A DNA stretch of 64,000 nucleotides, taken from contig JACPSK010000001.1 of assembly GCA_016193335.1 (NCBI GenBank), positions 175,926-239,925 of the forward strand, read 5' to 3'. Made by a program: the position numbers and the translations under genes. The notes under the pieces were generated by a model. It was not told the origin of the DNA. It made no database searches and saw only the letters and a list, made by a program, of their open reading frames with translations. Shown in pieces: positions 42,840-61,692 of this stretch; positions within the stretch are counted from its first letter, which is position 1, and each line of letters opens with the position of its first letter. The DNA is from Candidatus Magasanikiibacteriota bacterium. GTDB lineage: Bacteria; Patescibacteriota; Patescibacteriia; Magasanikbacterales; UBA922.

Positions 42840-43784
42840 TTATCCAAACAAGCGCTTCTTAAAATCCGCTATGGTTTTCTCCAAGCCCTGGTCCAGAGAG
42901 ATTGTCGGCTTCCAGGCCAAACGTTCTCCTGCCAGATCTATGTTCGGCTGTCTTTGTTTCGGGTCATCCTCCGGAAGATCCCGATACACGAGCCTGCTCG
43001 AAGAGCCAATGGCAAGAATAATTTTTTCCGCTAGTTCTTTAATCGTAAATTCAGAAGGATTGCCAAGATTGACCGGCCCGAGGAAAGAAGCCTCGGTTTC
43101 CATCATTTTGACAAGTCCCCCCACCAAATCGTCCACATAACAAAAACTTCTGGTCTGAGAGCCATCGCCGTAAATCGTAATATCTTCCCCTTTGAGGGCT
43201 TGCAAGATAAAATTCGACACCACGCGGCCGTCATTAAAGGTCATCCGGGGCCCATAGGTATTGAATATACGTACGACTTTTATTTCCATGCCGTGCATCC
43301 GATGATAATCAAAACACAGAGTCTCAGCGCAACGCTTGCCCTCGTCATAGCAAGCTCTCGGCCCGATGATACTTACATTCCCTCTGTAAGCTTCGGTCTG
43401 CGGATGAACTTCCGGGTCTCCATATACTTCGGAGGTGGACGCTTGCAAGAGCCTTGCTTTATGTTTTCTCGAAAAACCCAAAACATTAATCATGCCTATA
43501 GTGTTGGCTTTGATGGTACGCACCGGATTTTTCTGGTAATGAATGGGGCTCGCGGGGCAGGCTAAATTATATACCTGATCTATATGCTCTTGGATTTCAA
43601 AAGGTTCAATAATGTCTTTCGGCAAAAAATGAAATCGCGGATTATCAAGAAGCCGCGTTATATTTTCTTTCCCGCCGGTAAACAAATTATCAAGACAATA
43701 TACTTCATGTTCTTTATCCAAAAGCCGTTCACACAAATGAGAACCTATAAAGCCCGCGCCGCCGGTTACCATTATCTGAGACAT
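42840..43784 (-). CDS. uxs: UDP-glucuronate decarboxylase (UDP-xylose synthase)
   Basis: [40 protein letters not shown] and [15 protein letters not shown] blocks are characteristic of UXS/ArnA-C-type decarboxylases. Confidence 0.75.
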
Positions 43785-43874: not shown

Positions 43875-43910
43875 AAAAACCCGCCGATTTTATGTCACAA
43901 GCGGGTTTTA
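43875..43910 (-). terminator. Candidate intrinsic terminator downstream of the decayed fibre gene
   Basis: AAAAACCCGC-16 nt-GCGGGTTTT. On the minus strand the stem is followed by TTTTTGATT. Confidence 0.45.
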
Positions 43911-43930
43911 ATAAGTCCGATAATATTCCC

Positions 43931-45250
43931 TTACAGGATGGCGGGGCAGGTTACCACAGAACCGAGTACAACTCCGTTTTGAACCGTTATAGAGGTGCAA
44001 GCGGTCGCGTCATCAGAGTCGTGCATTATTATTTCAGGTCCGCCGGTGCCACCATCATAAATCATGAGCGTTGTGCTACCGGTGGTATTTTTTATGGTAC
44101 TCGTGGCAGAATGCACAGTGCCGGACGCGTGCACGTCATTCCAAGAAAAAGTTGGACCTGTAAAAGAACCCCATTCACCGATATCAAAACTATTGTTAAG
44201 GGCAGGTCTCAGAAAACCGCTGAAAGAAGCGGAGTTTATATCTATGTCCACCGAGCCTCCACCGGTTTGCCCGAATGTAACGTTTCCAAAAAAAGTGGTC
44301 GCTCCGGTAACTCCCAAGGTGGAACTTACATTCACAAAACCGTCAACAGATAAATTATTCCCTACATTCAGGTTCCCAGAGTTAGTTTTTGCTCCCGTGT
44401 TATTCACAGTCCCGAGCCAAACGGTGCCGCTGGAATACATATCACCCCAGGCAAACCCATAGGCTCCAAAGTCACCGGCGTCATTGCCGGATGGCATAAG
44501 AAAATCTACAGAGGTCATCGTAGAACTTACATAATCCAAGAACGCGGTGCTGGACGCGTAGATATTTTTTGCCGCTTTGCCAAAACTACCGAAACTGGCG
44601 CGATTATTTACGGTCAGCAAAACACCATCTCTAAGGAGTATGCATGGTGCTCGTTACATAATCCAAAAAGGCCGTACTCGATGCATAAATATTGCCAAGC
44701 GCGTTGCCATAAGCGCCAATGCCAACCGAATTGTTCGAACCGAGAAGCACCGTGCCATTTATGGTCAAGGCCGTACTGCTTACATAATCCAGAAAGGCCG
44801 TACTCGATGCGTAGATGTTGTCGAGGGCATTGCTATAAGCGCCAATGTCCACTGTTTTGTTTGATCCCAAAAGCACGGAACCGTTTATGCTTAGTGCAGT
44901 CGAACTTACATAATCCAGAAAGGCGGTGCTGGACGCGTAGATGTTGTTATACGAGAGAGAATATGAACCCAAATCAACCGTGTTGTTGGCATTCGGATCC
45001 AAATCTCCTGCCAAACGCGCGGTAACCGTGAGGCTGTCGCTCGTGGCATTGCCAATGGTAGTACTGCCTTCTATACTCAAGGCCGAGCTTAAAGTGGTGT
45101 TTCCTATTACGTCAAGCGTGCCACCTATACAGATACATCATTGCCCACAGTCGTCACAGCAAGGGACGATTCAGAAATCAAGAACGACAAAACCACAATA
45201 AATAAAAATCCCAAACAGGCGAATTCTATTCTAAAAAGTGGTCTTGCCAT
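43931..45250 (-). pseudogene. Frameshifted paralog of the secreted phage-tail-fibre-repeat protein (47446..49158)
   Basis: From the ATG at 45250 the reading is MARPLFRIEFACLGFLFIVVLSFLISESSLAVTTVGNDVSV, then a stop. This is a signal peptide plus the same TTVGN(N/D)VSV start as the 570-aa protein. The repeat protein continues in two other frames (ORFs 44631..45080 and 43931..44620). Confidence 0.6.
44640..44990. repeat. Three tandem 114-bp (38-aa) coding repeats
   Basis: CTTACATAATCCAGAAAGGCCGTACTCGATGC... recurs at about 44660, 44775 and 44895. The protein repeat is D.GAYSNAL.NIYASSTAFLDYVSSTAL.ING.VLLGSN. Confidence 0.55.
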
Positions 45251-45314
45251 ATTTTTTCTAAATATAAAAAATATAATTAATTGATGAACAAAAAAATAAA
45301 ACTTTCTATCCCAC

Positions 45315-45764
45315 CTAATTCGCAGATTCCGAATATAACCTTACAATATCAACAATTTTATCCGCCACCGCATCGTATATTATAACTCCATGAGGATAAT
45401 AAAGCAATTTATCTCCGTTTTTCACATATTGAAAATATATGGGATTTTGCTCATGCAAGCTGGACGCGTCAAGCACCGTAGCCACCGTAATTTTCCCCTC
45501 AGGGAAAAGCATATGACGTGAGACAGCTTGTACCACAAGATCCGCCTCAGAACCTGATCCTGTTGTGTCTTCTGCAGGCTCTGTAGCCTCTGTTTGTCTG
45601 CTTTTCAAAAAATCTTGAGAGTTTTCTTGAAAAGGTACCTTTGCTTTGTCCTCAACACCGCGATCAAGCATATACCAGGCCAAAATTACGACTACCAAAA
45701 AACTGATGAGAGACACTGTAACAGAGCCGTACAAAATCCTTTTCTGATTCAAATTCTGATTCAT
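45315..45764 (-). CDS. Small type-II membrane-anchored protein, family copy 2 (paralog of 49262..49729)
   Basis: An N-terminal TM helix, then the conserved C-domain VQAVSRHMLFPEGKITVATVLDASSL...NPIYFQYVKNGDKLLYY...IVDIVRL, shared with 49262..49768. Confidence 0.55.
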   Translation of the reverse strand: MNQNLNQKRILYGSVTVSLISFLVVVILAWYMLDRGVEDKAKVPFQENSQDFLKSRQTEATEPAEDTTGSGSEADLVVQAVSRHMLFPEGKITVATVLDASSLHEQNPIYFQYVKNGDKLLYYPHGVIIYDAVADKIVDIVRLYSESAN

Positions 45765-46006
45765 ACATTCGCTTCCTAAAAATTTAAACTTTCAGAAGAA
45801 CAGGCATATTATAGATCTTTTTCTATGCCTAGTACATCCTTATTTGTGTACAAATATAAGTCTACCTCTTCACAACATATTTTGAAAATCCTACGAAGTC
45901 AGCCCGCTTCGCTGCTTTGCCGACTTGAGTCCTGACTGAAAAAATTGTCAATAAAACAAGCCCCTGAATCCAGAGGCCTGTAATATCCGATAGAGCTTTT
46001 TGATTT

Positions 46007-47404
46007 TTACAGTCCGCTCAAAACAGCTCCTTCGCTATATGTTTCAGAGTCTTTCAAAGTAACTATCCGGTCCCAGCGATATTTCAATTTTTTGAATGTT
46101 TGTTCGTCCTTTATATGACGCTTTATCTGTTTGCTGGAATCAGCCGGATCCGGTTCAAGACGATAAACCTTGGAAGAACCTTTATATTTAACCAAAGTAT
46201 AATTCGGATGATGATCCGTATAACTTATCTCTGACCCGACTTTATATTTGTCGAGCAAGGCGCCATCTATGTCTTCAATCCAATCCCATTTATAACTGAG
46301 ATCATTAAATACTTTTTCAGAATTTATCCAATATTTATCAGGACCCAGAAGCAAGTATACTTTAGGATCTGTGACGATTTTTGCCAAGGCTCCGTATTTT
46401 GGATCGTAGAGAGGCCCCCATGGCATGAAACCCAGCGAATCATTAGTGATACTGTCCAATTTCGCTTTCGTGGTCGTCATGACACTGCTCCATCCGGTGA
46501 GATAGCTGAAAAATTTATCCGGACTGCTGAAAGGTCTTTTGGTACAGTTTTCAGTTACATAGTAAACAGCGGGTGACGCGGAATGTTTGTAAGCTTTTTT
46601 CAGAGCCAAAGCACACTCTTTCTTGCCGCCAGCTGCCAATTCTGAGAATTGCAGTTTTGGATTGCCTTTTTCATCCAAACCGTAATAGGTTACTCTCAAA
46701 TCCGCTTTGCCATTGCCATCACTGTCTATATCTTTCGAAGCACCTTTATCAAGGGTAACACTCACCGGTTTTGACTCTATCACCATGCTGATAGTGCTTT
46801 CCGTGGCGCTTGAAACAGTAACCGTGTGAGAGCTGGATCCTACACTTATTGATGTGGGAGAGCTGACACTTACTGAAACAGTAACCGGAATTCCTACGGG
46901 AGCTGGAGCTTCAGCGGCCGGGGCAGGAGCTTCAGCCTCAGCCTCAGGAGCCGGAGCCGGAGCCGGGCTAGCGCCCGGGCCTGATCCACCTCCGCCACCT
47001 CCGCCGCCCCCACTACTACCCGCGCCTGAGCTCGCCGTACAGGTGGTCTGAGGAGTTACCGTAATGGTCTGAGAATCAATATCATTGGTACAAAGAATCG
47101 TGAGCTTAGATGTTGAGGCGCAGGTTATCGTTTTTTCACCGCAGGTATTGCTCGATAAGCCAAATCCGTCTCCATTGGCTGAAGTGATCTCCACCACAGA
47201 GCCGGTAGCCACGGTAAACACTACATTATCTGTATTAACCGTGTAAGACTCCACGCGGGTGGCATTGGTAAGCGTATAGGTGTGTCCTGTGCCCGCGCTC
47301 AAACTTACGGTTGTAGTCCCATCATGCGTGACCGTGTTAAAGGCTCCAAGCGCCGCGGCGGGTACGAGGAGAAAAACCGCGATAATTGTGAATACTTTAT
47401 GCAT
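46007..47404 (-). CDS. Secreted protein with poly-Gly and Pro/Ala/Glu-rich linker, C-terminal domain of unknown function
   Basis: Signal peptide MHKVFTIIAVFLLVPAAALGA. Low-complexity segments GGGGGGGGGS and PAPAPAPEAEAEAPAPAAEAPAP. The C-terminal domain of about 270 aa has no motif I can name. Confidence 0.55.
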   Translation of the reverse strand: MHKVFTIIAVFLLVPAAALGAFNTVTHDGTTTVSLSAGTGHTYTLTNATRVESYTVNTDNVVFTVATGSVVEITSANGDGFGLSSNTCGEKTITCASTSKLTILCTNDIDSQTITVTPQTTCTASSGAGSSGGGGGGGGGSGPGASPAPAPAPEAEAEAPAPAAEAPAPVGIPVTVSVSVSSPTSISVGSSSHTVTVSSATESTISMVIESKPVSVTLDKGASKDIDSDGNGKADLRVTYYGLDEKGNPKLQFSELAAGGKKECALALKKAYKHSASPAVYYVTENCTKRPFSSPDKFFSYLTGWSSVMTTTKAKLDSITNDSLGFMPWGPLYDPKYGALAKIVTDPKVYLLLGPDKYWINSEKVFNDLSYKWDWIEDIDGALLDKYKVGSEISYTDHHPNYTLVKYKGSSKVYRLEPDPADSSKQIKRHIKDEQTFKKLKYRWDRIVTLKDSETYSEGAVLSGL

Positions 47405-47445
47405 AATGCTTTTTGTTTTGCTTGGGTTATACTTCAACTACCGGA

Positions 47446-49158
47446 CTAGAAATCACATGGATAGGTCCCGCTTGATACCGTCGAAGTGACAAACTCTCCA
47501 TTCACACCGAAAGAAAAATTTATACAGCCGCTTCCATCGCTTTTTTCCATTATGATGGCCGCTCCGAGCGAAGCTTTGCCCGAACCCATCACCAAATTGG
47601 AAACAGCCACAGAATTAACAAGAGTGGAAGTTGTCATATAGACTGTTCCTGAAGCGACGAGATCATTAAACGCCGCTCCGGCGCCGGCGCCGGAAACCAA
47701 GACACCGACATCATAGGTGTTATGTGTCCCCGGAGCTACTGAAGAAGCAACTCCTCCGTTAAAGGTAATAGTATCAGCGCCTGAATCTCCAAGAGTCACA
47801 TTGCCGTCTGCGCTCAGCACACCTGCCCAGAGAGTACCGGAAGAGAAAACATCATTCCAAGCGTTGCTGAACGCGCCGAGATCAAGATCATTGTTTGCAG
47901 TCGGTTCGAGTCTGCTTGCAAAACGAGAGTTGAGATAAATGGTATCAGACGTAGTGGCATTGCCCAGAGTTGTATTGCCGCCAAACCAGCCGGTGCCGTC
48001 TACCGCGAGGTTGTTGCCAACGCTCAAATCACCGGCACTGGTGCCAAGAGTGGCTACGTCTACGGTGCCGAGAACGATGGTGTTGGAAGCGAAAATGTCC
48101 CTCCAAGCTCCACCGTATTCTCCGGAGTCATACAAATTATTACCCACCGGTACCACAGTACCCGTAATGTCAGCGGCTCCAAACAAAGTCAAAGTACCGC
48201 TTGCAGAGCTATTCCCGATGGTGGTATTTCCGTAAAGCTGTGAAGTCCCATCAACAGCGAAATTATTACCCACACTCAAATCTCCGGCAGCGGTGCCAAG
48301 AGTAGCTAAGTTAACAGTGCCAAGCACGATAGTATTCGAAGCGAAAAGGTCATTCCAGGCGTTTGAATAGGCGCCAAGATCATTTCCATTGTTATCAGTG
48401 GGCTGAACTGACCCGGCCACACGAGCGTTGAGATACAATACATCTGTGGTAGTGGCGTCCCCAACAGTCAAGTTGTTTGAAATGGTAACGCTTGAACTCC
48501 ATACTGCCAAAGTGCCTACATACAAAGTCCCGGAAACATACAGATCTTTCCAAGCATTTGAGTAGGCGCCAAGATCATTTCCATTGTTATCAGTGGGCTG
48601 AACTGACCCGGCCACACGAGCGTTGAGATAAATGGTATCAGAAGTAGTGGCATTACCAAGAGTAGTGTTGCCGCCAAACCAGCCGGTGCCGTCTACCGCG
48701 AGGTTGTTGCCAACGCTCAAATCACCGGCACTGGTGCCAAGAGTGGCTACGTCTACGGTGCCGAGAACGATGGTGTTGGAAGCAAAGAGATCGTTCCATC
48801 CTGAACCATAAGCTCCGAGGTCATAGGTGTTGTGAGTGCTCGGCAAAACATTACTTGCCACGTCAGCGGTTATTGTAACCGTGTCGCTGGCAGAATCTCC
48901 GATGGTCGAGTTCCCGTTCAGGGTTGTAGCCCCAGTCACGGTTGTGGCTCCGGTAACGTCGAGCGTACCTCCAAAGGTTGCAGCCCCAGTGATGGTTGTA
49001 ACTCCGGTTACGTCGAGTGTGCCTCCAACAGAGACATTATTACCGACTGTAGTCGCGGCTTTGGAACTGCTTGGAGCGAACAGCAGAGCAACCGCTATAC
49101 CCAGTCCTGCGTAGAGAAGCAACATTCGTGCCTCTCTCCAACTTAGTGATTCAGACAT
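47446..49158 (-). CDS. Secreted beta-rich repeat protein with phage-tail-fibre-like repeats
   Basis: Signal peptide. Recurring DLGAYSNAW(N/K)DL(F/Y)AS.T..LGTV units resemble the LG....W..+Y phage tail-fibre repeat. The C-terminus has two cysteines (GSGCINF...YPCDF). Confidence 0.65.
   Translation of the reverse strand: MSESLSWREARMLLLYAGLGIAVALLFAPSSSKAATTVGNNVSVGGTLDVTGVTTITGAATFGGTLDVTGATTVTGATTLNGNSTIGDSASDTVTITADVASNVLPSTHNTYDLGAYGSGWNDLFASNTIVLGTVDVATLGTSAGDLSVGNNLAVDGTGWFGGNTTLGNATTSDTIYLNARVAGSVQPTDNNGNDLGAYSNAWKDLYVSGTLYVGTLAVWSSSVTISNNLTVGDATTTDVLYLNARVAGSVQPTDNNGNDLGAYSNAWNDLFASNTIVLGTVNLATLGTAAGDLSVGNNFAVDGTSQLYGNTTIGNSSASGTLTLFGAADITGTVVPVGNNLYDSGEYGGAWRDIFASNTIVLGTVDVATLGTSAGDLSVGNNLAVDGTGWFGGNTTLGNATTSDTIYLNSRFASRLEPTANNDLDLGAFSNAWNDVFSSGTLWAGVLSADGNVTLGDSGADTITFNGGVASSVAPGTHNTYDVGVLVSGAGAGAAFNDLVASGTVYMTTSTLVNSVAVSNLVMGSGKASLGAAIIMEKSDGSGCINFSFGVNGEFVTSTVSSGTYPCDF
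47961..48110. repeat. Intragenic direct repeat, copy A (about 150 bp)
   Basis: Near-identical to 48641..48790. It encodes IFASNTIVLGTVDVATLGTSAGDLSVGNNLAVDGTGWFGGNTTLGNATTSDTIYLN. Confidence 0.7.
48641..48790. repeat. Intragenic direct repeat, copy B (about 150 bp)
   Basis: Near-identical to 47961..48110. A second shorter pair lies at about 48378..48445 and 48572..48640. Confidence 0.7.
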
Positions 49159-49261
49159 AATGTACTATATTTTACCTATGTATTTAAAAGTAACATAGGT
49201 TTTAATTTATAAATAAATGTAAATTTCTCAGAGAATAGGAACCCTTATTTCTTCGACCACA

Positions 49262-49729
49262 TTATTCGGTAGTCTTCTTGGATCCTGGTCCAGTAACCAC
49301 TTGCTCAGGAAATAACCTTATAACATCCACAATAATATCTTGCTCCAAATCGTACACAATCAGACCCAAAGCGTAGCGTATAATTTTATCCCCATTCTTA
49401 ACGAACTGAAAATATAATGGATTCCTGGAACGGAGCAAATCCGCGTCCGTAACGGTTACGACCGTAACATCGCTTTGAGGAAGCATAATATGTTTAGAGA
49501 CCTTCTGAACCACTTCCACTACCTCGGATTGTTGATTGTTTGCTGAAGCCTTATCTATATTTAGACCTTCTGCGTTTTTTGCAGGTCCTGCGCCATCCGG
49601 TTTCACGTCTCCCTTGTCAAAAACATACCAAGCAAGTATCAAAACAATCGATAAAGCTAAAAAAGACAACAAAATTGAGGCATACGAAAAAGATTTTTCA
49701 CCCGTAAGATGAAGTCCTTGTTTCTTCAT
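49262..49729 (-). CDS. Small type-II membrane-anchored protein, family copy 1
   Basis: An N-terminal TM helix, then the domain VQKVSKHIMLPQSDVTVVTVTDADLLRSRNPLYFQFVKNGDKIIRY...IVDVIRL. It lies immediately upstream (minus strand) of the fibre-repeat gene. Confidence 0.55.
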   Translation of the reverse strand: MKKQGLHLTGEKSFSYASILLSFLALSIVLILAWYVFDKGDVKPDGAGPAKNAEGLNIDKASANNQQSEVVEVVQKVSKHIMLPQSDVTVVTVTDADLLRSRNPLYFQFVKNGDKIIRYALGLIVYDLEQDIIVDVIRLFPEQVVTGPGSKKTTE

Positions 49730-49865
49730 TCCTAAACTCATAACCCCTTTAGAAATATATATCTGCAAGTATACTCTTTTTTTTATACAGGTGATACGTT
49801 TTCTGTGGATAAGTACTAAAAAACAAAATACAATTGTTTTTCAAAAATAAATACGATACACTACA

Positions 49866-51071
49866 ATGCATACAATCATTATGGAATTACGCCAAAAACA
49901 AACTATTTTGTACATCATCACTCAGGGGCATTGGGGAGGCGCTCAAACCTATCTCTATGAGCTCGCGACAGGCTTAAACCGGAGGTACAACATACATATA
50001 GCAGTGGGAGAATCTCTGGATACTCCTGATTTACAGAAAAAAATACAAACATTCAACCAAGGAGAATCCGCACAAAATCAAATCTCCTGTATAAGCCTCA
50101 AACATCTAGTCCGTCCCGTCTCCCCTGCCCAGGATATCTTGGCCATTTTTGAAATGGCAAAATGTATCAAAACCTGCGAACCGGATATAATACATCTCAA
50201 CAGCTCAAAAGCCGGCGTTCTTGGTTCAATATCCGCCCTATTTTACCGTAATCCTTCAAAACGCGTGATATACACGGTCCACGGCTGGGTATTCAACGAA
50301 GCTCTTGGAAAAACAAAAAAATACCTATATAAAATCTTGGAAAAACTAAGCGCGGCTTTCAAGACTCACATTATTCTACTGACAAAAAAAGACTTTTCCA
50401 TTGTCCTCAATCTCCTTGGTATCTCCAAAAATAAATTGCGTCTTATACCGCTTGGCGCCTCAGTCCAAAATCATATTTTAACTAAACAAGAGGCAAAAAC
50501 ACAGATAAACGCATACCTACCTTCAAACAAAAAAATTCTCCAAGATACATTCACCATAGGTATCATAGCCAATTTATACCACAACAAAGGTATCGACATA
50601 CATCTGCGAGCCCTCGGCCTTTTGTCCAAGACAGAGATTCAAAATACCAAAACCATAATCATAGGAGACGGGCCTGAGCGCGCAAGACTTCTAAAGCTTT
50701 CCGAAGATTTGCATATCAAAGACTTTGTCCATTTCCTCGGATTCATTGACAAAGCTTCCTGTCTTCTACCGGCCTTCGATCTCTGCATCATACCTTCAAG
50801 AAAAGAAGGCTCACCATATATCTTAAAGGAAGCCATAATCCAAAACATCCCTGTGTTAAGCTCAAAAGTCGGCGACGTAGAAGAATATATCATACATAAA
50901 AAAACCGGACTCCTCGCAGAACCCGGCAATACGGATGAATGGGCCGCTCATATTGTATGGTCTCTCCACAATAGACAACAACTGTCTTCTTTCTCCGCGT
51001 CAAACCAAAAAAACATCCCGAGCGTGGATGAAATGCTAAAAAAAACCATTGAGGTGTACGGCACTGTGTAA
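49866..51071 (+). CDS. GT4 glycosyltransferase
   Basis: CIIPSRKEGSPYILKEAIIQNIPVLSSKVGDVEEYI (E-x7-E). Confidence 0.7.
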   Translation: MHTIIMELRQKQTILYIITQGHWGGAQTYLYELATGLNRRYNIHIAVGESLDTPDLQKKIQTFNQGESAQNQISCISLKHLVRPVSPAQDILAIFEMAKCIKTCEPDIIHLNSSKAGVLGSISALFYRNPSKRVIYTVHGWVFNEALGKTKKYLYKILEKLSAAFKTHIILLTKKDFSIVLNLLGISKNKLRLIPLGASVQNHILTKQEAKTQINAYLPSNKKILQDTFTIGIIANLYHNKGIDIHLRALGLLSKTEIQNTKTIIIGDGPERARLLKLSEDLHIKDFVHFLGFIDKASCLLPAFDLCIIPSRKEGSPYILKEAIIQNIPVLSSKVGDVEEYIIHKKTGLLAEPGNTDEWAAHIVWSLHNRQQLSSFSASNQKNIPSVDEMLKKTIEVYGTV

Positions 51072-51139: not shown

Positions 51140-53161
51140 CTACTTATTTATCGTCGTAGAAACGACATCTCCGAGAAGCGCCAAACTCTGTTCATCAAAA
51201 TAAATCCCGGCCGCGTAGGCGCGGTTTACCAACTCAATCGCCTTCTCAGTCTGTCCCAAATGTTTATAGACCAAAGCCAACCTCCACCAACCCTCGCCTA
51301 TATCAGGCAAAAGATTTATACTCTCTTCCAAAAGTTTTACGACTTCTTCCCCTTTTCCCAACTGAAATTTAACACCGGCCAAACTGTAATACACTTGCTG
51401 ACGCTTGGGAGACTTGCGCAAGGCATCCTCCATAATCACTTCGGCTTTTACCACATATTCTGCGTTATGCGTGATTTCTGAGAGAACCTGGGCTATATGG
51501 GTCAGCTGAAGGTGTATCCTGATGTCATAGGGATGGATGTCCATGTTTTTCATCAAATCGTCGAAAGCTCGCTTTCCCATTTTAACCGCGAGTTCCGGAT
51601 TGCCGCCCTTGGCATACTGGCCCATGGTGTCCACCACGGTTCGCGCCAAGTCCAAACGAATATCATCCACATGAGGCGTGGGAATCCGGTACGCCTGTTC
51701 TATGGCTCCAAGCGGGTCGTTCCCTGCGTAGATACCGCGAATCGCGTCAAGAGAATGCATATTTGCCCGGGCAGGGCTGATATTAGTGGCATAGATGATA
51801 AGCGCCAGCACAATGGAAACAGGAGCCACCATGGAGAGAGACAGCTTGGCAGACTTAACATTCGCTATCCGCGCCAGAGCTTGAGGCCGTATATGCCAAT
51901 TTACAAAAGCCAAAAAGAAAAAGAAATAAATATATGAAGTGGGATTTTCAAACACAAACAACTGTTGAACAAAATGAGACACCAAAAAAGCCGACCCGAG
52001 AACACTCACATGCACGCCAACTTTCTTCTCACGATATCCTTTCCACAAATACCATATGGGAACCCCGAAAAGACCGAGATAACTCAAGAATCCAAACAAA
52101 CCCTGAACCGCAAGCGTGTTTAGAGCCGCGTTGTGCGCGTTGTCAAACCAGGTTTCTCCATAACCGGAACGCAAAAACTCGGGTCTGTAATATTTATTAA
52201 ACGCGTAATAATAATTGTTGGGTCCCCAACCGAATATGGGCTTTTCTTGCCAAGCCTCCACGGCTATATTCCAAGCCATCAAACGCGTGGCCCCCGTACC
52301 GCTGGTAAAAGATGAATTAACCAGTTTGCCCACAATGGGTGTTTTCATCACAAAAGGACTTTGTCTAAAAGTAAAAGCCAATACAAGGCACAAGAGACCG
52401 CCCACTATTACTATTCTCAAAATCTGGCGAACGCGCTTATGGCCCGAAAGAGTAATCGAATAACCAAGCAACAAAACCCCAAGCCCGGCCAAAAAACCCA
52501 AAAAAACGCCCCTGGTACCGCTAATAAATATACCCACCAAGCCAAGAAAGCTCACTATTCCAAAATAGCCTTTCCACAAAAATGTTTTCTCTTCAACAGC
52601 AAGAAAAAAACCCACAAAAGACAAAAACATCCCATAAGCTCCCAGATAGATGGCATTCCCCAAAGTGGCAGACACACGATCACTGCCTCTATTCAAAAGA
52701 AATTCAGGACTAAAAATTTGGATAATCCCCAAAACCATGATTAAAGCCCCTGTTGATAAAAGAATAAACAGCAAACGCCTCCATTGCTCCCGGGTTTTGA
52801 TGCAAGATGCCAAGACCACGTAATACATGCCATAATGGATAAGCGTAAAAAAACCAAGCATCCGTTCATGGTTGTCCCAAAAACTCTTGTACCAATCCAC
52901 GCCCAAAAAAGTGGACACCGCGAAACTCAAGAAATAAAGCAGAATCATGAGAGTAAGCGGCGTAGCTCGTACTTTATACGCCTCCCTGTCCATTTTAAAA
53001 AGCAAAATAAAAGTGCCGAGCATCAAAAGCGCAATGGTCCTGAAAAGAATAATTTTGGGTACGATAAAAGGAAAAATAAAAGCGCTGGGCACCACCACAA
53101 AAGGAACCAAAAACGTCAAGACAACAAGAGAAAAAAGTACTTGTTCAAGTCTCTTTTGCAT
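51140..53161 (-). CDS. O-antigen ligase/polymerase-like (Wzy_C) polytopic membrane protein with C-terminal TPR domain
   Basis: About 12 TM helices, including a loop segment IFISGTRGVFLGFLAGLG typical of the Wzy_C region. The C-terminal 250 aa are TPR-like (ALVYKHLGQTEKAIELVNRAYAAG). Confidence 0.55.
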   Translation of the reverse strand: MQKRLEQVLFSLVVLTFLVPFVVVPSAFIFPFIVPKIILFRTIALLMLGTFILLFKMDREAYKVRATPLTLMILLYFLSFAVSTFLGVDWYKSFWDNHERMLGFFTLIHYGMYYVVLASCIKTREQWRRLLFILLSTGALIMVLGIIQIFSPEFLLNRGSDRVSATLGNAIYLGAYGMFLSFVGFFLAVEEKTFLWKGYFGIVSFLGLVGIFISGTRGVFLGFLAGLGVLLLGYSITLSGHKRVRQILRIVIVGGLLCLVLAFTFRQSPFVMKTPIVGKLVNSSFTSGTGATRLMAWNIAVEAWQEKPIFGWGPNNYYYAFNKYYRPEFLRSGYGETWFDNAHNAALNTLAVQGLFGFLSYLGLFGVPIWYLWKGYREKKVGVHVSVLGSAFLVSHFVQQLFVFENPTSYIYFFFFLAFVNWHIRPQALARIANVKSAKLSLSMVAPVSIVLALIIYATNISPARANMHSLDAIRGIYAGNDPLGAIEQAYRIPTPHVDDIRLDLARTVVDTMGQYAKGGNPELAVKMGKRAFDDLMKNMDIHPYDIRIHLQLTHIAQVLSEITHNAEYVVKAEVIMEDALRKSPKRQQVYYSLAGVKFQLGKGEEVVKLLEESINLLPDIGEGWWRLALVYKHLGQTEKAIELVNRAYAAGIYFDEQSLALLGDVVSTTINK

Positions 53162-54163: not shown

Positions 54164-57100
54164 TTACTTCGCTACAACGGTAGGCGTGGTAGAGACGGAG
54201 TTCAATCCGCTTACCAAGAAACCGTTTACCCAGTCGTTCGTGGTGGTCGCGTGAGCGCCAGCACTGCGATCAGACCAGATGAAGTCATCATGGACATCGC
54301 TGTCGACTGTGTTGGCTGCTGACATGAGGTTAGCGTTCTCAACCCATGTGGCCGCGTCACCGCCGAGCCGTGTGCTAATGCTTGCTCCGGAAGCCACGCC
54401 AGTAACTGTGCCGCGGACCAAGTAGAGTCTTGGCTTGGAAACAGAAACTGTGCGTTCTTCTCCTCCATCGCCTGTGCCTGAACTGTCAGTATCAAACAAG
54501 GCCTGGAAGTAGCCGTTCACAAAAGCAGTAGTAGCTGAATTGTACAGTTGTACTTCCGTGCTTTCGGTAACATCGAGCACTTCAACGTTCGTGACTGTAG
54601 CCGTTGTCGTACTCATATCGAACACGAATTTGTACAATCCGATATCTCCCTTGTTGGCTGTGACCTTGAACTTGAACAGATCATTAGCGCCGTTTGCCAA
54701 GGTTCCGCCCACCGACAGAACTTCTACAGTCGGAGCAGCCTTGTACATGTAGTGCGTATTTCCTGTCGGAACATTGGAAGTGCTGAGGTACTCAATACTT
54801 CCAGTTCCGGTGAGGTTGCCTTTTGCCACCACATCTCCCGCGGCGTTGATCTTCAATCCAAGACGATGGCCACCTACTGTTACGGACTCTTGCGGACCAA
54901 TGCTGGCGAGGTTTGCCTTGAGATAAAGTTTCTTGCCATCAGAATCATCGGTCTTTACCACAAAGGATCCATCATTAAAGTCTATAACAGGGGTGGTGCT
55001 GGTCGGTACTACAGAACCTACCTTCACACCGTCTTCATCTTCAGCGTACAGAAGAGCATAATCCTTAAATGAAGAGCTGCTTGTGTCAGTCACGTTCATG
55101 GTGAACATGAGAGTGTCGAGCTCTACATTTTCTGTGGTGGTTGCGTAGAAGTTGAAGGTTCCCAAGGTCACACCGCTCGTTCCCGCGGTCATAAGAGCCG
55201 CTGTCGGGTTGGATGGGTCAAGTGAAACCTGTACGGTTCCGCCTGCCGCGCCTACGGTAATGGCTTGTCCATTTGCCGTGTCCTTAGTCTCGGTAACTGT
55301 GTTACCGGTCTTCACGCCCACAGATACCACGTCATCATTGCTGTTGTCATTGTCTACAGCAAATGTATGAGAGGAGGTGGATCCGGTCACTGCCCCACCG
55401 GCAATGTTTCCAACAACGCGTACTACCACCTTCTTGCCGGCCTTGACAACAAATTGGTCAGTGCCGCTCAAGTTGAAGGTAAAGGTTTGGTTGTTGCCTG
55501 CCGTGGAATCAGAACCGCTCTTTGTTTCGTTCAAAGCTTCTTCAGTACCGGCGCCATCATAGCTGTCGCCATCTTTATCCACCATCAATCTGATGTTCTG
55601 GACATCAATGGTTTTAGCAGCGGCATCGGTAGTATCCGTCATCTTGACCTGAGTAACTCTTATGTCCTCAGAAGAATTGCTGCCGTCAAACAAAAGTTGA
55701 GCGAACTCAACATTGTTGGTACCGGCTGCGAGTGTCTTGGCCGAAGGTACGGACAAGGTGGTCACGCGCAAAGAGCCTGCTTTGATAGTCTGAACGTTTG
55801 CGCTCACTGCGGCTTGCGGGTTTGCGTAAGTGCCAAGCGTAATCGTTTCAGAACTGTTTTCACCGGTAGCTTCGAAATTGGACGTATTGGCCATATCGAT
55901 AGCTACGGTTACTGTGTCATTTACTGCCGGCGTGCTGTCAAGAGTAGCCTTCAAAGTAAGGATATTGTCACCGACCGGTAAAGTAAATGAATCAGTTGAT
56001 GTCGCATAACCGGGGCTGGTGGATCCTACGCCGTCTTGTCCTCCGGTAAGAGAATCACCTTTTGCGCTGTACAAAACGAGCTGATCAAATCCGGTCGGAA
56101 GTACAGAGCCAGTGGTGGTCAATCTGAACACTACGGTTTTTACGGTTATAGGTTCTCCCTGAACTTTGAAGTTCCATGAACCCAATGCTACGCCGGTTGA
56201 ATCTTCCGGGATATTGCCGGCAATAACATCATTGGTCTTGGAAACGGTCAAGTTGCCCTGAGCGACAGTTACCGTGTTGCTCATCGCGCTCGCGTTATTG
56301 GTGGGAGTGGCATAGTAGCTATGCTTCAAATCCTTGGCCAATACATCGCTGGCTTGTTTTACATCCAAGTTCATGGTTCTCGCTGAGCCGCTCACAATGT
56401 CACCATATACTTCATAGGTCTTGTTCTTGCCTTTACCGATCTTACAGTCTTCGGTACAAGCATCAAGCTTGAAGGTAACATATTTGCCGCTCATTACACC
56501 GGTAGCAACTTTGTTGTCGTTGTAGCGGAGTTCAAGATCCGCGAAATCAGTGGTCGCGGCGCTTCCATCGTTGTAGAGAACGATTTTCTCAACCTGGAAA
56601 TCATTGGTCGCAACCGTGATCTTTACGTTGGCAAGGTTTATATCCTTGTCACCAACTTGCTCGGTGATGGTGCCTACCACAGCGCCTTCTGCCAAGGTTA
56701 CGGTGCCAAGAGTCACACCGGTGTTGGTTTGCACAGCATTTCCTTCCACAGGAAGAGTGCTGGCTACTTTGGCATCTGTCTCAACAGAATACAAAGCCAA
56801 GCGTGGTAAGTCTCCGCCGATAACGCCGGAACTCGCCATGTCAGCAACCAAAGTGTAGGTCTTGGTTTCGCCGCTCTTTACCATTACGTCTTCTGTAAAG
56901 GTGGCTAGGCTATCTGCATTCAATGTTTTACCAAGTGAATTCAACAGATTTCCATCCGGATCTACCACGTTTACTTTGCTCAAGTCTGCGTCTCGAGCCG
57001 GTGTACCGGTTCTCTTAACCACAAATGACTTGATAGTTACATCACCACCAGTCGCGCTAAGGTTGAGTTTGGTAAACTCAACGCGAGCCGCGCTTTGCAC

Positions 57101-57937
57101 TGCATAGGTGCCTGATGGCGTGCCAGCAGCCAAAGCCACACTCAAAGTCCCTTGGCTGGTCGTTGTGGTGTCAGTGGTTGTGGTGTCAGTGGTTGTGGTG
57201 TCAGTGCTGCTTGAACCAGTTCCCATCTGAGAAGGATCGGCACTAAGACTGCTTGGAGTTGCCGTGCCGCTTGCCACTTCCAAAGAATCAAATACTTCTT
57301 GGGAAACAGTGCGCACGTCACCCTTTGAGGTCATACCAAGAGTGCCGCTTACTTCTTTCAGTTCACCATTCCATACGTAGAAAACGCTGTCATCTCCGGA
57401 AGTCTTCACCAACATACCATTATGTGGTTTTGCTTCGGTTACAGCAGGGCCGTCTTTGTAGTTGGCGTCAAATACATCCGCAAGGTCTCTCACAAGAGAA
57501 GCCCACTTGTCGCCATACAGCGCTTTGGCCACAGCTTCGCTGGCCAATTTGTGCTTCATGTTGCTTGGACCCACGGCGTATACGTCTGGTGAAACTACGG
57601 TCTTGTACAATCGTGAACCAGGGCGGAAGTTTACACCACCACCACTTGGATAATTGCTTACGCATGTGTTTGGAATTTCTACCACACCGGAGAAATCTTC
57701 AAACCATGTTTTGTATACTTCTGAGTTCGGGAAATACATGCGCTCCATGTCAGCGTTGACATAGTATACCGCGCTGTTGTTCGGAACTTTGAACAAGTCC
57801 CCGGCTTCTAGCTCAGGACATGCTTCGGCCGCGTTGACCACGGCTGGAAGAAAAGCACCGAACGACATGCTGAAAACGGTCATACCAGAAACTACGCTGG
57901 TAAAGAGCTTTTTCCCGAATTTCTTCAAATCGCTCAT
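54164..57937 (-). CDS. Giant secreted cell-surface protein (S-layer or adhesin candidate) with Thr-rich linker
   Basis: Signal peptide MSDLKKFGKKLFTSVVSGMTVFSMSFGAFLPAVVNA. An N-terminal domain of about 200 aa, then a TDTTTTDTTTTDTTTTS linker, then about 1000 aa of beta-rich Thr/Ser/Gly/Val sequence. A strong terminator lies downstream. Confidence 0.7.
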   Translation of the reverse strand: MSDLKKFGKKLFTSVVSGMTVFSMSFGAFLPAVVNAAEACPELEAGDLFKVPNNSAVYYVNADMERMYFPNSEVYKTWFEDFSGVVEIPNTCVSNYPSGGGVNFRPGSRLYKTVVSPDVYAVGPSNMKHKLASEAVAKALYGDKWASLVRDLADVFDANYKDGPAVTEAKPHNGMLVKTSGDDSVFYVWNGELKEVSGTLGMTSKGDVRTVSQEVFDSLEVASGTATPSSLSADPSQMGTGSSSTDTTTTDTTTTDTTTTSQGTLSVALAAGTPSGTYAVQSAARVEFTKLNLSATGGDVTIKSFVVKRTGTPARDADLSKVNVVDPDGNLLNSLGKTLNADSLATFTEDVMVKSGETKTYTLVADMASSGVIGGDLPRLALYSVETDAKVASTLPVEGNAVQTNTGVTLGTVTLAEGAVVGTITEQVGDKDINLANVKITVATNDFQVEKIVLYNDGSAATTDFADLELRYNDNKVATGVMSGKYVTFKLDACTEDCKIGKGKNKTYEVYGDIVSGSARTMNLDVKQASDVLAKDLKHSYYATPTNNASAMSNTVTVAQGNLTVSKTNDVIAGNIPEDSTGVALGSWNFKVQGEPITVKTVVFRLTTTGSVLPTGFDQLVLYSAKGDSLTGGQDGVGSTSPGYATSTDSFTLPVGDNILTLKATLDSTPAVNDTVTVAIDMANTSNFEATGENSSETITLGTYANPQAAVSANVQTIKAGSLRVTTLSVPSAKTLAAGTNNVEFAQLLFDGSNSSEDIRVTQVKMTDTTDAAAKTIDVQNIRLMVDKDGDSYDGAGTEEALNETKSGSDSTAGNNQTFTFNLSGTDQFVVKAGKKVVVRVVGNIAGGAVTGSTSSHTFAVDNDNSNDDVVSVGVKTGNTVTETKDTANGQAITVGAAGGTVQVSLDPSNPTAALMTAGTSGVTLGTFNFYATTTENVELDTLMFTMNVTDTSSSSFKDYALLYAEDEDGVKVGSVVPTSTTPVIDFNDGSFVVKTDDSDGKKLYLKANLASIGPQESVTVGGHRLGLKINAAGDVVAKGNLTGTGSIEYLSTSNVPTGNTHYMYKAAPTVEVLSVGGTLANGANDLFKFKVTANKGDIGLYKFVFDMSTTTATVTNVEVLDVTESTEVQLYNSATTAFVNGYFQALFDTDSSGTGDGGEERTVSVSKPRLYLVRGTVTGVASGASISTRLGGDAATWVENANLMSAANTVDSDVHDDFIWSDRSAGAHATTTNDWVNGFLVSGLNSVSTTPTVVAK

Positions 57938-58067
57938 AATTAGTAATCCTCTACTCATCTTCAAGCGTCCCAATGTTTATTTTTTCACCGGGATCAAAAA
58001 GATAAGTACTTGACTTAAAGTCATCCAACGGTCCATAGACCCCGACCTTTCAGTCGAATGACACTTC

Positions 58068-58239: not shown

Positions 58240-59580
58240 TTAATTCGAGTTTGTTCCCGTGGCTGATTTTGGAGCTACCTGTAATGCCGGATCTGTCTTT
58301 TGCGTGCCTGCTCCCAAGCCTCCCGCAGGAGGGGACACTGCCACAGCCTGAGCTTCAATCAAAATATGTTCAGCTACGTTTGTAATTTCACCGAGACCCT
58401 TTATGGTGTCAAAAGCCTCTTGCAATTTACCTTCTTCTATCAAAATCCTTACTTTTTGGGCTGAATTATCTACTTCTTTTGTTTTTTCTTTAAGTTGTTC
58501 TTTTGCCTGGCTAACCGAAGGCGTCTCTAGCACCTGGGCAGCCTGGGCCATCACATTGGCACTGGAAGAAACGATTCTCGGCGTGTCAGCGCTCCAAGAA
58601 GCTGTGGAACTGCTAAGCTGTACGGAAACAGTGGAAGAAGACAAAGACAGAGTACTGCTGACTGCGCCATTCATCAAAATAGCTGAACCGGAAACCGTTT
58701 GATTCGAAGCGTTTGAGTCGGCTCCTTTCTTTACTTTTTCATTATCTTGTAAAATATTGTCTAATGCTCCGTTCACCAAACTTTTTACTTCGTCTTTCAA
58801 ACCACCATTTTCAGCGATCCCGCTTCTCACGATTGTTTCAATCGAATCCAAGGCCTTACCATCCACACTTTGGGCCACTTCAGAGACTTGCCTTACCACT
58901 TCCGTATTTTGGGTCGTCTGAGAGTTGGCGCTAATGTCTTTCAATTCTTTGGTGATCACTTCTGTTTCTTTTTGAGTGTCTTTCGCAAGAGCCAGAGCTT
59001 TGCCAGGGTCTTCATTTATTTTTTGTTTAACCTCTTCATTGCTTATGGTCACTGCGGTTGATATAGACTCCTGAAGATGCTTGTTCGCGGCATCCACCCG
59101 ACGCGAAGTATCTTTACGATCCTCTTCAACCAATTGTTTGATCTCTTCCACCCTTCTCTCTGCAAATTCAAAATTTCTTTTAATTTTAATCTCTTGTTTT
59201 GATTCTTTTGGCGCTCCAACAGCTGCAAAAGCTATCTGAGTTTTCTCATGAGCCACTTTAACACTCCAGCACATATCTCCGGGTATACAATTGAAAGTGG
59301 CGCTTACACTGGCAGACCAGCCGGCGAGGGCCATGAGCATGATAAGAAAAGTAGTGAGCACCGGACGACCAAACGACACCAAGCCCTGCGGTACAAACGT
59401 ATGAATAAATATATCGAAAGACCAACTTTTTTCTCCAAACGAGACAGGCCATTGCTTCACTGCCTGAGCACGTATCTGGTCCATCATTATCTCTTTATTT
59501 TTTGAAACCCAAGAAGGATCTGGGTTAAGCAGATCTTTCATCGTATCAAAATGCTTCAATTGTCTTCGAAAATTCTTCAT
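58240..59580 (-). CDS. Candidate anti-sigma factor: a single-pass membrane protein with a long coiled-coil and Ser/Thr-rich ectodomain
   Basis: It starts 17 nt after the sigma-factor stop. A cytoplasmic N-domain of about 85 aa, one TM helix (VLTTFLIMLMALAGWSASV) and a charged, repetitive extracytoplasmic domain. Confidence 0.5.
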   Translation of the reverse strand: MKNFRRQLKHFDTMKDLLNPDPSWVSKNKEIMMDQIRAQAVKQWPVSFGEKSWSFDIFIHTFVPQGLVSFGRPVLTTFLIMLMALAGWSASVSATFNCIPGDMCWSVKVAHEKTQIAFAAVGAPKESKQEIKIKRNFEFAERRVEEIKQLVEEDRKDTSRRVDAANKHLQESISTAVTISNEEVKQKINEDPGKALALAKDTQKETEVITKELKDISANSQTTQNTEVVRQVSEVAQSVDGKALDSIETIVRSGIAENGGLKDEVKSLVNGALDNILQDNEKVKKGADSNASNQTVSGSAILMNGAVSSTLSLSSSTVSVQLSSSTASWSADTPRIVSSSANVMAQAAQVLETPSVSQAKEQLKEKTKEVDNSAQKVRILIEEGKLQEAFDTIKGLGEITNVAEHILIEAQAVAVSPPAGGLGAGTQKTDPALQVAPKSATGTNSN

Positions 59581-59596
59581 ACACGCATTGTCCAAG

Positions 59597-60157
59597 TTAT
59601 TGCTCTTTCTGAAGAATATTTTTGAGCACTTGCAAAGCTCTATGCAGAGTAACCCTCACATTTGTCCTGCTTTTTCCAAGTATGACGGCTATTTCAGAAC
59701 CACTCAAAGAGTCCATATATCGGAGAATTATTATCTCCTGATATTCACGCTTCATCTTTTTCAAGGCTTTCAGTATTTTTTCAGCCTCATAACGATCGTG
59801 AATCATTTCGTATTCTTTCGCGTCTGTTCCCTGTTCTTTCAAATCTTCGAGAGAACAAAGTTGTTCTCTTCCCTTTTTTCTATAAAAATCCACCAAAGTA
59901 GTTTTGGCTACTTTATATATAAAGCCGCTGAAACTTCTTACATCACTGTACTTTCCTTCGGCAAGATAATTCCAAGCTTTCAAAAAAATGTCACTGGTCA
60001 AGTCCTCTGCCTCGGAACGACTTGAAACCTTAAAAGAAATAAATCTATATATCCTCTCTATATACAGACTATAAAGCTCCCCGTAAGCCTCAGGATCACG
60101 GTCTTTCTTTATTTTGTAAAGAAGCTTTTTTTCTCTCAAGCTGTCTTTTACGTTCAT
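59597..60157 (-). CDS. ECF-type sigma-70 family RNA polymerase sigma factor
   Basis: Region 2 DLTSDIFLKAWNYL and region 4 HTH LSGSEIAVILGKSRTNVRVTLHRALQVLK. Length 186 aa. Confidence 0.8.
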   Translation of the reverse strand: MNVKDSLREKKLLYKIKKDRDPEAYGELYSLYIERIYRFISFKVSSRSEAEDLTSDIFLKAWNYLAEGKYSDVRSFSGFIYKVAKTTLVDFYRKKGREQLCSLEDLKEQGTDAKEYEMIHDRYEAEKILKALKKMKREYQEIIILRYMDSLSGSEIAVILGKSRTNVRVTLHRALQVLKNILQKEQ

Positions 60158-60619
60158 ATATGAAGACGTTGGAACTAAAAAAGTGTTACATCAGAACACC
60201 GAAAGCAGGGGCCCTAAATCTCTAAAAACATCAAGAACAAAACAAAATTCCTTTTCGGAATCTGCCGGACGATGTTTCAAGAAATTAAGAGAATACAGGC
60301 CAAACCCACTTGAATAGAAGTATAGCATATTTTATAGCTTGATTCCAGATTTTAAAGAAAATATGATTAGAAAAACAGCTGTCTAAGACATGGCCTATGC
60401 CCGTGGAAACATATCTATAAGCTTTCCATATATTGAACGCGAATACGCGAAAATTTATCTCCATTCAGGTTCACCGACAAGAGGCCTCATATCTTAGCCG
60501 ATAAAATGAAAAAATGCAAGTATCTGTACAGTATCTCTATTCTCAATAATAAAGCATTCCGCTTATTCTACCATTCTTAGTCAAAATTATCTCAAAAAAT
60601 TAAAGAATACTAAACATAT

Positions 60620-60910
60620 TTTTGTATAAAATAATGTATACAAAATTATATTAATATAGATCTTTTTGTATACATTATTGTACTAAATTAAAAATGTCGA
60701 ATAAACCTCCCCACTCCGAGAGTATTCATCAGTCATTCTTGTATTTAAGATATTTTGTAGTTAAGATAAAATATAATTTTGTATAGATTATTGTATACAA
60801 ATATTATTATATTTTTTCTTTCTTCAAAGCTAGCTACTAAATAAAATAAAAAAACTTGTATATTGACAAAAATACCTTTTTTTGTTAATATTATTGTATA
60901 CAAAATTACT
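60620..60910. promoter_or_regulatory. Array of TTGTATACAA palindromes and ATTATTGTATACAAAAT direct repeats in a 760-bp non-coding region
   Basis: Full palindromes lie at about 60646, 60668, 60796 and 60895. Half-sites TTGTATA lie at about 60622, 60778 and 60858. The array sits immediately upstream of the HTH_17 gene and is part of the region divergent from the sigma-factor operon. Confidence 0.5.
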
Positions 60911-60918
60911 GTTTATTT

Positions 60919-61251
60919 ATGCCTGAACAGAGTTTTTCCCAGCAAAAAGAGGTAATACGAGTATCGGTTTCCGAAGCGGCAAGGCTTTTTGGCGTAAATG
61001 CTCAGACCATTCGAAGAGCGATCAAAAATCAGGAAATCAATTATGTGGTGGTTGCCGATCGCTATAAAATAGATTTTGAAAGCTTGGTAAAATGGTCTCA
61101 AAAGAGAACAACCGTACGAAAAAAAACAAATATTCATGGGATCGGCCAATTTGTAGACAAATGGAAAATATCAAACACTCTTTATTCACCAAGCTCTAAA
61201 AGAATAAAAAAAACAGAAACCCCTGAGGAACAGAAAAAGACAGAAGAATAA
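60919..61251 (+). CDS. HTH_17 (excisionase/MerR-like) DNA-binding protein
   Basis: VSVSEAARLFGVNAQTIRRAIKNQEINYVVVADRYKIDFESLVKW fits the HTH_17 pattern. A basic C-terminal tail follows. Confidence 0.6.
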   Translation: MPEQSFSQQKEVIRVSVSEAARLFGVNAQTIRRAIKNQEINYVVVADRYKIDFESLVKWSQKRTTVRKKTNIHGIGQFVDKWKISNTLYSPSSKRIKKTETPEEQKKTEE

Positions 61252-61434
61252 AGCCTAAGCAAATTCCGCGCTACAACAAACACTGACAATCTCCGACAGA
61301 GCAGGATCCAAATTCTTAACAAAGCGCCAACAAACTCTAGAGACCGGATGAGCGCTCATTAATTAACAAGACAAAACACTGAAGATAACTAGATCTTCCT
61401 GTCTGTTTTAAAAGAGACAAAAAATGCAAAAGAT

Positions 61435-61466
61435 AAGGCCCGAATCCAAGGGCCTTCTTTTTTTCT
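61435..61466 (+). terminator. Intrinsic terminator after the HTH gene
   Basis: AAGGCCC-GAATCCAA-GGGCCTT followed by CTTTTTTTTC. Confidence 0.65.
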
Positions 61467-61692
61467 TGTTTTTTACCCCCTAAGAGGGATATAATAATCA
61501 CAGTCTGAAATCCTCACCATAAACGGTAATCAAGTCTTACAGATACATTCATACTCGCGACGCCAACTGCCAAAGCCCAACGGTTGGAGATAGCCAATTC
61601 GGGTGCCAGAATAATCGGGACTCTGTACTCAAATCTTCCAAAGACGTATTTCTAAAATATCCATAGATCTGCAAAACCGTATATCCGTACTT

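Follow-up and report, generated by a model that had tools for sequence, protein, structure and literature searches.

We analysed a 64,000-nt window (the whole stretch of DNA presented above) of contig JACPSK010000001.1 from a Candidatus Magasanikiibacteriota bacterium. A locus on its minus strand encodes two small membrane proteins (small1 and small2), two repeat-rich fibre proteins (fibre1 and the broken fibre2) and a third, predicted secreted protein. In our judgement this locus is probably a conserved cell-surface fibre module situated in an envelope-glycan gene cluster, together with a decayed spare pair of small and fibre genes. We hold the descriptive part of this reading with high confidence; for its functional part the chances appear about even. 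Directly observed are the anatomy of the locus, the paralogy of its two copies, the two fibre2 lesions, which recur in other assemblies, the conserved gene neighbourhood and the resemblance of the fibres to phage tail fibres. We class the module as an uncharacterised form of a familiar type of system, a surface fibre or adhesin with accessory proteins, and literature searches returned no description of it. The source organism is an uncultured groundwater bacterium from the Patescibacteria, or Candidate Phyla Radiation (CPR).

An earlier reading of this DNA from the letters alone (the original prediction) had described a duplicated two-gene cassette of a small membrane-anchored protein and a secreted fibre protein, the second copy being decayed. 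Its open reading frames (ORFs) all lie where it had placed them. Small1 and small2 (locus tags HYY51_01115 and HYY51_01100) match exactly the proteins MBI2989776.1 and MBI2989773.1 of a Candidatus Magasanikbacteria metagenome-assembled genome. They are paralogues (36% identity, E 2e-33, across the transmembrane segment and the C-terminal domain) and share, as had been proposed, the motif NP.YFQ[FY]VKNGDK ... IVD[IV][IV]RL behind one hydrophobic helix. Fibre1 and frame-corrected fibre2 align from end to end with 29.5% identity (E 1.7e-36). Each has the predicted TTVGN[ND]VSV N-terminus and six units of the DLG..W..[LI][YF] type, and both end in a C-terminal domain with two cysteines. The third gene lies between the two copies; it is absent from the original prediction and, in related genomes, forms part of the module. 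Copy 2 is without a third gene of its own. Since terminator-like hairpins follow the third gene and fibre2, small1–fibre1–third gene and small2–fibre2 look like two transcription units (Table 1).

Related genomes were surveyed using the small protein, fibre homologues and third-gene orthologues as anchors, and all ORFs around them were searched for the small domain with a hidden Markov model, and for fibre and third-protein homologues with phmmer. The genome and metagenome scans for the small protein used a single peptide pattern and returned 4 and 5 loci, respectively. In this sample of about 15 genomes, 10 cassettes from 9 genomes (the window counting twice) have the small gene as the direct upstream neighbour of a fibre gene, in the same orientation. 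The order small–fibre–third is found in L008/L017, L010, L012–14, L021 and L026. In L022 the order is third–small–fibre and in L028 fibre–small–fibre–third. L016 contains small–fibre and then the contig end, and L011 and L027 contain fibre–third with the upstream part cut off. Most of these loci share the flanks of the window: a Wzy_C protein with TPR repeats and a divergent GT4 glycosyltransferase, with an SDR enzyme and additional GT4 genes after them; the module of L010 lies outside the glycan cluster. A second small gene was found in none of the other surveyed loci, and L028 has two intact fibre genes. L018 and L019 have distant members of the small family and no fibre; the L019 member is longer (260 aa). 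From these arrangements we conclude that the pairing of small and fibre genes is real but not obligatory, and that the usual unit consists of three genes. Thus, of the pairing put forward in the original prediction, recurrent adjacency is upheld, while a strict two-gene unit is not. L010 (CAZTEU010000001.1) is titled "uncultured Gammaproteobacteria bacterium", yet its cassette resembles those of Magasanikbacteria, and the taxonomic label or the binning is probably wrong.

Table 1. Features of the fibre locus and its immediate flanks (positions in the window)
Feature	Position	Strand	Remarks
Wzy_C (O-antigen-ligase-like) protein with TPR repeats	51140..53161		flank
GT4 glycosyltransferase	49866..51071		flank, divergent
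small1	49741/49729..49262	minus	intact ORF
fibre1	49158..47446	minus	intact ORF, 570 aa
Third gene	47404..46007 (ORF extends to 47437)	minus	465-aa secreted protein (predicted)
Terminator-like hairpin	45981-45956	minus	3' of third gene; 11 pairs, then T-run
small2	45764..45315	minus	intact ORF, 149 aa
fibre2 pseudogene	45250..43931	minus	three pieces
fibre2 segment A	45250..45125	minus	41 codons
Lesion 1, extra TA	45127-45126	minus	between ...GTA TCT GTA and GGT GGC ACG
fibre2 segment B	45080..44631	minus	149 codons, shifted frame
Lesion 2, one extra base, ACT[C]CTT	44634-44637	minus	within third 42-aa repeat; original frame regained
fibre2 segment C	44620..43931	minus	229 codons, same frame as A
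Hairpin with U-run after fibre2	43909-43876	minus	fold −14.9 kcal/mol, z = −3.85
UDP-xylose-synthase-like SDR enzyme	42840..43784		flank

The small1 protein comprises 159 amino acids (aa) if translated from the ATG at 49741 and 155 aa if the start is at 49729. The former start is probably the true one, because it matches the 159-aa NCBI protein, is conserved in the homologue P0002 and is preceded closely by AAAGGGG. The protein has a basic N-terminus and a conserved alpha+beta domain of about 75 aa. An AlphaFold2 model built from 28 family members (155-aa form) predicts a transmembrane helix at residues 11–39, a disordered linker at 46–63 and, at 66–138, a domain of one helix and four strands with a predicted local distance difference test score (pLDDT) above 90. 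By the positive-inside rule, the C-terminal domain is placed outside the cell. Residues that are invariant or nearly invariant in the family fall in columns identical between small1 and small2, and small2 keeps them.

The small proteins have no match among Pfam, NCBIfam or PHROG families, and PDB searches with single sequences and profiles gave nothing real. A HMMER search of 1.8 billion representative sequences yielded a family of 1680 clusters at E 0.001 or better, most members being 120–180 aa long. LytR_C is found at the C-terminus of some members. In another, the ectodomain follows an N-terminal, cytoplasmic MerR helix-turn-helix (HTH) and a transmembrane helix, and one member consists of four tandem copies of the ectodomain. 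The small-domain architectures were seen in P0248, P0170, P0195, P0204, P0246 and P0263. Judging from sequence, the small protein represents a large unnamed ectodomain family that is not specific to fibres; the MerR, LytR_C and tandem forms hint at a general function in binding or sensing at the envelope. The partner called dedicated in the original prediction therefore does not deserve that word: the family is large, and its members also occur by themselves, beside a third gene where no fibre is present, and in fusions with LytR_C or MerR domains. Named comparators are membrane-anchored proteins with PepSY/cystatin-like or VirB8/NTF2-like ectodomains (B. subtilis YpmB 2gu3, YpeB 5boi, VirB8 4kz1); the PepSY profile matched none of the 28 family members. 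As to a likeness to viral chaperones, no PHROG match was found, nor any BFVD structural match at E 0.001 or better.

Several observations weigh against the view of the locus as a dedicated surface-fibre module. The small family extends far beyond the fibre association, including the LytR_C and MerR fusions. A small gene stands alone beside rplT/infC in L007, L009 and L015, and L020 has small–third and no fibre. Fibre genes also occur without a small gene: third–fibre in L023 and a solitary fibre in L024 and L025, while the first fibre gene of L028 has no adjacent small gene either. The sample is biased to syntenic relatives, because it was drawn by similarity to this very locus. The AlphaFold2 model of the fibre monomer is poor (pLDDT 52) and lends no support to a trimeric fold of the tail-fibre type; poor monomer models are common for fibres that are obligate oligomers, yet they prove nothing. 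Export of the fibre, its position on the cell surface, what the small and third proteins do, and adhesion are inferred.

The first of these points, together with the four-copy tandem form, favour an alternative in which the small protein serves the envelope of Patescibacteria in general, for example with a sensing or binding ectodomain tied to wall or glycan metabolism. It would then lie beside fibre genes only through sharing their envelope gene cluster, as a bystander and not as a fibre-specific partner. Against it speaks the recurrent position of the small gene directly upstream of the fibre gene. This adjacency survives the permuted gene order of L022 and L028 as well as the location outside the glycan cluster in L010. 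Moreover, the second copy in the window holds a small gene together with the fibre gene rather than a fibre gene alone. We regard the bystander explanation as possible but rather unlikely.

The third protein has a signal peptide, an N-terminal domain specific to the module, a Gly/Pro/Ala linker and a C-terminal triple repeat of about 200 aa (46007-46620) of the type VY.L....K..I....F....Y.W. It belongs to no Pfam, NCBIfam or PHROG family, and its PDB matches were rejected as artefacts of the glycine linker, which matched the linkers of single-chain variable fragments. Its C-terminal 200 aa or so are found at 50–70% identity in about 60 of the 103 secreted proteins listed. Most of the named carriers are Magasanikbacteria, and their N-terminal domains are of the PG_binding_1, fn3, CAP, Ig-like or GHL15 kinds. 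A second copy of this module is present in the same genome (HYY51_01665). Full-length orthologues that also share the N-terminal domain are those found beside fibre genes, and some of them carry PG_binding_1. Such orthologues adjoin fibre genes in L008, L010, L011, L012, L021, L022, L023, L026, L027 and L028.

Because one terminal module occurs on many secreted proteins with varied N-terminal domains, we read it as a shared anchor, probably a lineage-specific wall or surface anchor. In the SLH-domain S-layer and surface proteins of Firmicutes a shared anchoring module is encoded beside genes for the wall polymer that it binds. The third protein resembles these proteins in combining one conserved terminal module with varied functional domains and in the location of its gene in an envelope glycan cluster. 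In contrast to them, its C-terminal module does not resemble SLH, CWB2 or LysM (no Pfam match), and polymer binding is putative. The locus as a whole follows a logic like that of wall-anchored surface-protein systems of Gram-positive bacteria, with no domain in common.

The fibre1 protein begins with a signal-peptide-like N-terminus followed by the conserved motif ATTVGNNVSVGGTL. Neither fibre belongs to a Pfam or NCBIfam family or has a sequence relative in PDB. In Pfam, NCBIfam and PHROGs the sole family match is that of the N-terminal part of fibre1 to phrog_25747, "tail fiber protein" (E 3.4e-12). In tblastn the fibres matched annotated tail fibres of the cyanomyoviruses P-HM1, S-CAM9 and MED4-213 and of the Roseobacter phages (podophages) CRP-212/603, with 30–44% identity over 12–37% of the query (E 1e-7 to 2e-4). 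These matches bear out the likeness of the repeats to phage tail fibres that had been proposed from the sequence. The 518 fibre homologues include distant ones with a C-terminal Peptidase_S74 or with an endosialidase tail-spike segment. Fibre1 and fibre2 themselves have no Pfam match to Peptidase_S74, which was found only in distant homologues such as P0021.

In fibres of the CPR type, a basic-hydrophobic N-terminus precedes an almost invariant A[TS][TS][VI]G[NT].V.V, and many of these proteins end in a domain of the form G..II.E.SD..GC...V.C. The phage-like homologues have a different N-terminus in their consensus, and fibres of the CPR type are without the virion-attachment N-terminal domain. 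Fibre1 also contains an internal duplication of 231 aa (693 nt, within 47822-48814 of the minus strand), with copies that are 81–92% identical; blastn gives 96% over one 168-nt stretch. Other short-read assemblies end inside the fibre1 repeats, and GCA_964404105.1 has a 100-N gap there (L001 3575-3674). The number of repeats in fibre1 is uncertain, since other assemblies end or have a gap inside this duplication. A separate fibre variant was seen in L028 (2071-3543), upstream of a normal small–fibre–third set. It is 490 aa long, with the usual N-terminus and a cysteine tip, and its centre has about eight SPDGI[NT]WT...YGNG.FVA repeats that resemble a beta-propeller insert.

Compared with phage tail fibres, the proteins of the window share a beta-rich stretch rich in Gly, Thr, Asn and Ser that ends in ..N..DLG.....W..[LIV][YF].SGT (matches at E 1e-7 to 3e-12), a variable number of repeats, and modular, mosaic tips. 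They differ in that their genes are chromosomal, in a glycan cluster and away from virion genes, in that a signal-peptide-like N-terminus takes the place of the baseplate-attachment domain, and in the absence of the Peptidase_S74 intramolecular chaperone. That the fibre genes are what is left of a prophage or tailocin, and not cellular genes, could be argued from the repeat-level similarity and from the Peptidase_S74 of some distant homologues. However, no phage genes were found nearby, the flanking genes encoding glycosyltransferases and envelope proteins. Many Magasanikbacteria have the fibre genes at the same chromosomal position, and pattern scans of IMG/VR viral contigs found no relatives of them. 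By their context (GT4, Wzy_C and SDR flanks), their N-terminal domain and the missing S74 chaperone the window genes do not class as phage genes, and a phage remnant is very unlikely.

If the locus is a surface-fibre module, as we prefer to read it, its proteins might work as follows. The fibre would be exported by the Sec pathway. The small protein, with its N-terminus inside and its C-terminus outside, would act on the fibre at the outer face of the membrane by assisting folding, by assisting oligomerisation or by holding it. The third protein would fasten the fibre to the wall through the conserved fibre N-terminus. The variable, cysteine-containing tip of the fibre would then bind a partner surface, which in an episymbiotic lineage could be that of a host cell. 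It may also be speculated that the Ser/Thr/Asn-rich proteins of the module are glycosylated, given the glycan cluster with its Wzy_C protein.

The fibre2 gene is a pseudogene, with intact homologues in L008, L010, L012, L016, L021, L022, L026 and L028. Both breaks of its reading frame that had been reported, with a stop after 41 codons, are real in the sequence. The first lesion creates a TAG directly after VSV and shifts the frame, at a place where homologues read VSVGGT or VSVTGT. The second is visible independently as a spacing of 127 nt between repeats instead of 126 and 126 found by a repeat finder. In reconstruction, removal of 3 nt gives an uninterrupted protein of 438 aa with no other stop. 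It has a signal-peptide-like N-terminus, the TTVGNDVSVGG motif, four 42-aa tandem repeats and the C-terminal domain with two cysteines. The "two further frames" described earlier reduce to one, as only segment B is shifted.

The small2 gene is present on eight contigs of public assemblies, from which six loci were retrieved: Logan assemblies of the separate runs SRR12113418, -20, -24, -28 and SRR4343435, and GCA_964404105.1. All six are 100% identical to the window over the covered parts of fibre2, both lesions included. Because just 3 nt stand between fibre2 and a complete ORF with no other stop, we consider its decay recent. The sequence points to a recent loss of fibre2 through two insertions, of 2 nt and of 1 nt, both fixed in the population that was sampled, and the decay of the second fibre gene claimed by the original prediction stands. 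As such, the pseudogene is a case of ordinary gene decay. Opposite-strand ORFs over fibre2 (43892-44462 and 44577-45201 of the plus strand, up to 153 aa) are read as by-products of a repeat-rich, stop-poor composition and not as genes.

Fibre2 might still be expressed through phase variation, which the original prediction had also suggested, or through programmed ribosomal frameshifting. The two shifts do compensate each other, segments A and C being in one frame, and the segments have no further stops. However, the lesion sites read GTATCTGTA[TA]GGTGGC and CATACT[C]CTTAGA and contain no homopolymer, short tandem repeat or slippery heptamer. No coexisting on and off states were seen among the seven assembled copies, which are all identical. 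Phase variation is thus unsupported, with no simple repeat at either site and all assemblies in one state. Expression would require two independent non-canonical shifts, and segment B by itself has no signal peptide, while chance alone would supply a second, compensating indel in a sizeable share of cases. We judge expression of fibre2 by such means highly improbable.

As for the origin of copy 2, the duplication described earlier holds in that there are two copies, but copy 2 is a diverged paralogue and not a recent duplicate of copy 1. Intact fibres of L016, L021, L008 and L010 contain repeats of the kind seen in fibre2 (TVTARLA.DLDPNANNT.DLG..Y.NIY.SSTAFL.YVSST). Over about 110 aa, fibre2 is 56% identical to the L016 and L021 fibres, and it is 53% identical to that of L008; in its C-terminal domain it belongs with L012 and L022. 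Measured against the small proteins of other genomes (38–45% identity), small1 and small2 show no particular closeness to one another. A repeat search found no DNA repeat shared between the two copies, and none of at least 30 nt between the fibre genes. Because its repeats and C-terminal domain match fibres of other genomes, its small protein is diverged and no DNA repeat is shared, copy 2 is, on sequence comparison, either a paralogue of old standing or an alternative cassette that was acquired, with the mosaic make-up usual among tail-fibre genes.

Copy 2 could also be imagined as a silent donor for gene conversion into fibre1, providing antigenic variation like the pilS or vls cassettes. 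It is indeed a promoter-distal, non-functional paralogue beside a gene that looks expressed, and the fibre family is mosaic, with the N-terminal half of fibre2 resembling the L016/L021 fibres and its C-terminal domain those of L012/L022. Yet the absence of shared repeats and the low identity of the two proteins leave them too diverged for homologous recombination, and copy 2 is equipped with a start codon, a signal peptide, a small gene and a terminator of its own. The donor role thus seems even less probable than expression of fibre2. Least credible are sequencing or assembly errors, since, although repeat-rich genes assemble poorly and fibre1 is broken or gapped in other assemblies, the five Logan assemblies and GCA_964404105.1 agree fully with the window over fibre2 and the lesion sites are not homopolymers. 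Programmed frameshifting, phase variation, a gene-conversion donor, a prophage remnant and assembly error were each rejected on the evidence set out for them, and a surface-fibre module with one decayed pair is kept as the preferred reading.

Type IV pili are the known attachment organelle of episymbiotic CPR bacteria and the only structure tied to attachment experimentally (PMC9894109, PMC12206443). In addition, pili-like and unexplained appendages have been seen on ultrasmall groundwater cells by cryogenic transmission electron microscopy (PMC7906910). The proposed fibre resembles the type IV pili of Patescibacteria as a would-be surface filament that may mediate contact with a host. Unlike them, the module has no pilin-type N-terminus and no pilus assembly genes; its proteins are large, repetitive and equipped with a Sec-type N-terminus.

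More broadly, and only tentatively, Magasanikbacteria and perhaps other Patescibacteria might possess a non-pilus, Sec-exported surface fibre that arose by domestication of phage tail-fibre shafts. A dedicated small membrane protein would assemble it on a wall-anchored base protein, and it would serve to recognise and bind host cells. Extra small-plus-fibre cassettes with different tips would in that case be alternative determinants of host range that are gained, shuffled and lost, the newly inactivated spare of this locus being an instance. We consider this extended scenario doubtful. How ultrasmall episymbiotic CPR bacteria recognise and hold their hosts is largely unexplained, and the module would give an uncultured lineage a second attachment system as a concrete candidate that can be put to the test. 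It would also be a case of a cell reusing a phage receptor-binding architecture. The analysis also draws attention to two large domains without a Pfam or NCBIfam match, namely the small ectodomain with its many clusters and the C-terminal surface module of Magasanikbacteria.

The locus forms part of a long minus-strand run of envelope genes, and more GT4 enzymes follow downstream on the side of the SDR gene. The hairpin after fibre2 is likely its intrinsic terminator. Scans of the window for tRNA genes and Rfam families found nothing. Upstream of the TPR and Wzy_C genes lies an ORF of 1269 aa (54164-57973, minus strand) without a Pfam or NCBIfam match. It is taken to be conserved, because a 1270-aa gene occupies the equivalent position in L020, and it may encode another large surface protein. 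Farther along are an ECF-type sigma factor (59597..60157, minus strand), followed by a DUF5667 protein (58240..59595, minus strand), and, near the sigma factor, a DUF11/CARDB-domain protein (61693-63561, plus strand). The CARDB-domain protein falls where the G+C content is low (0.35 at 60001-62000).

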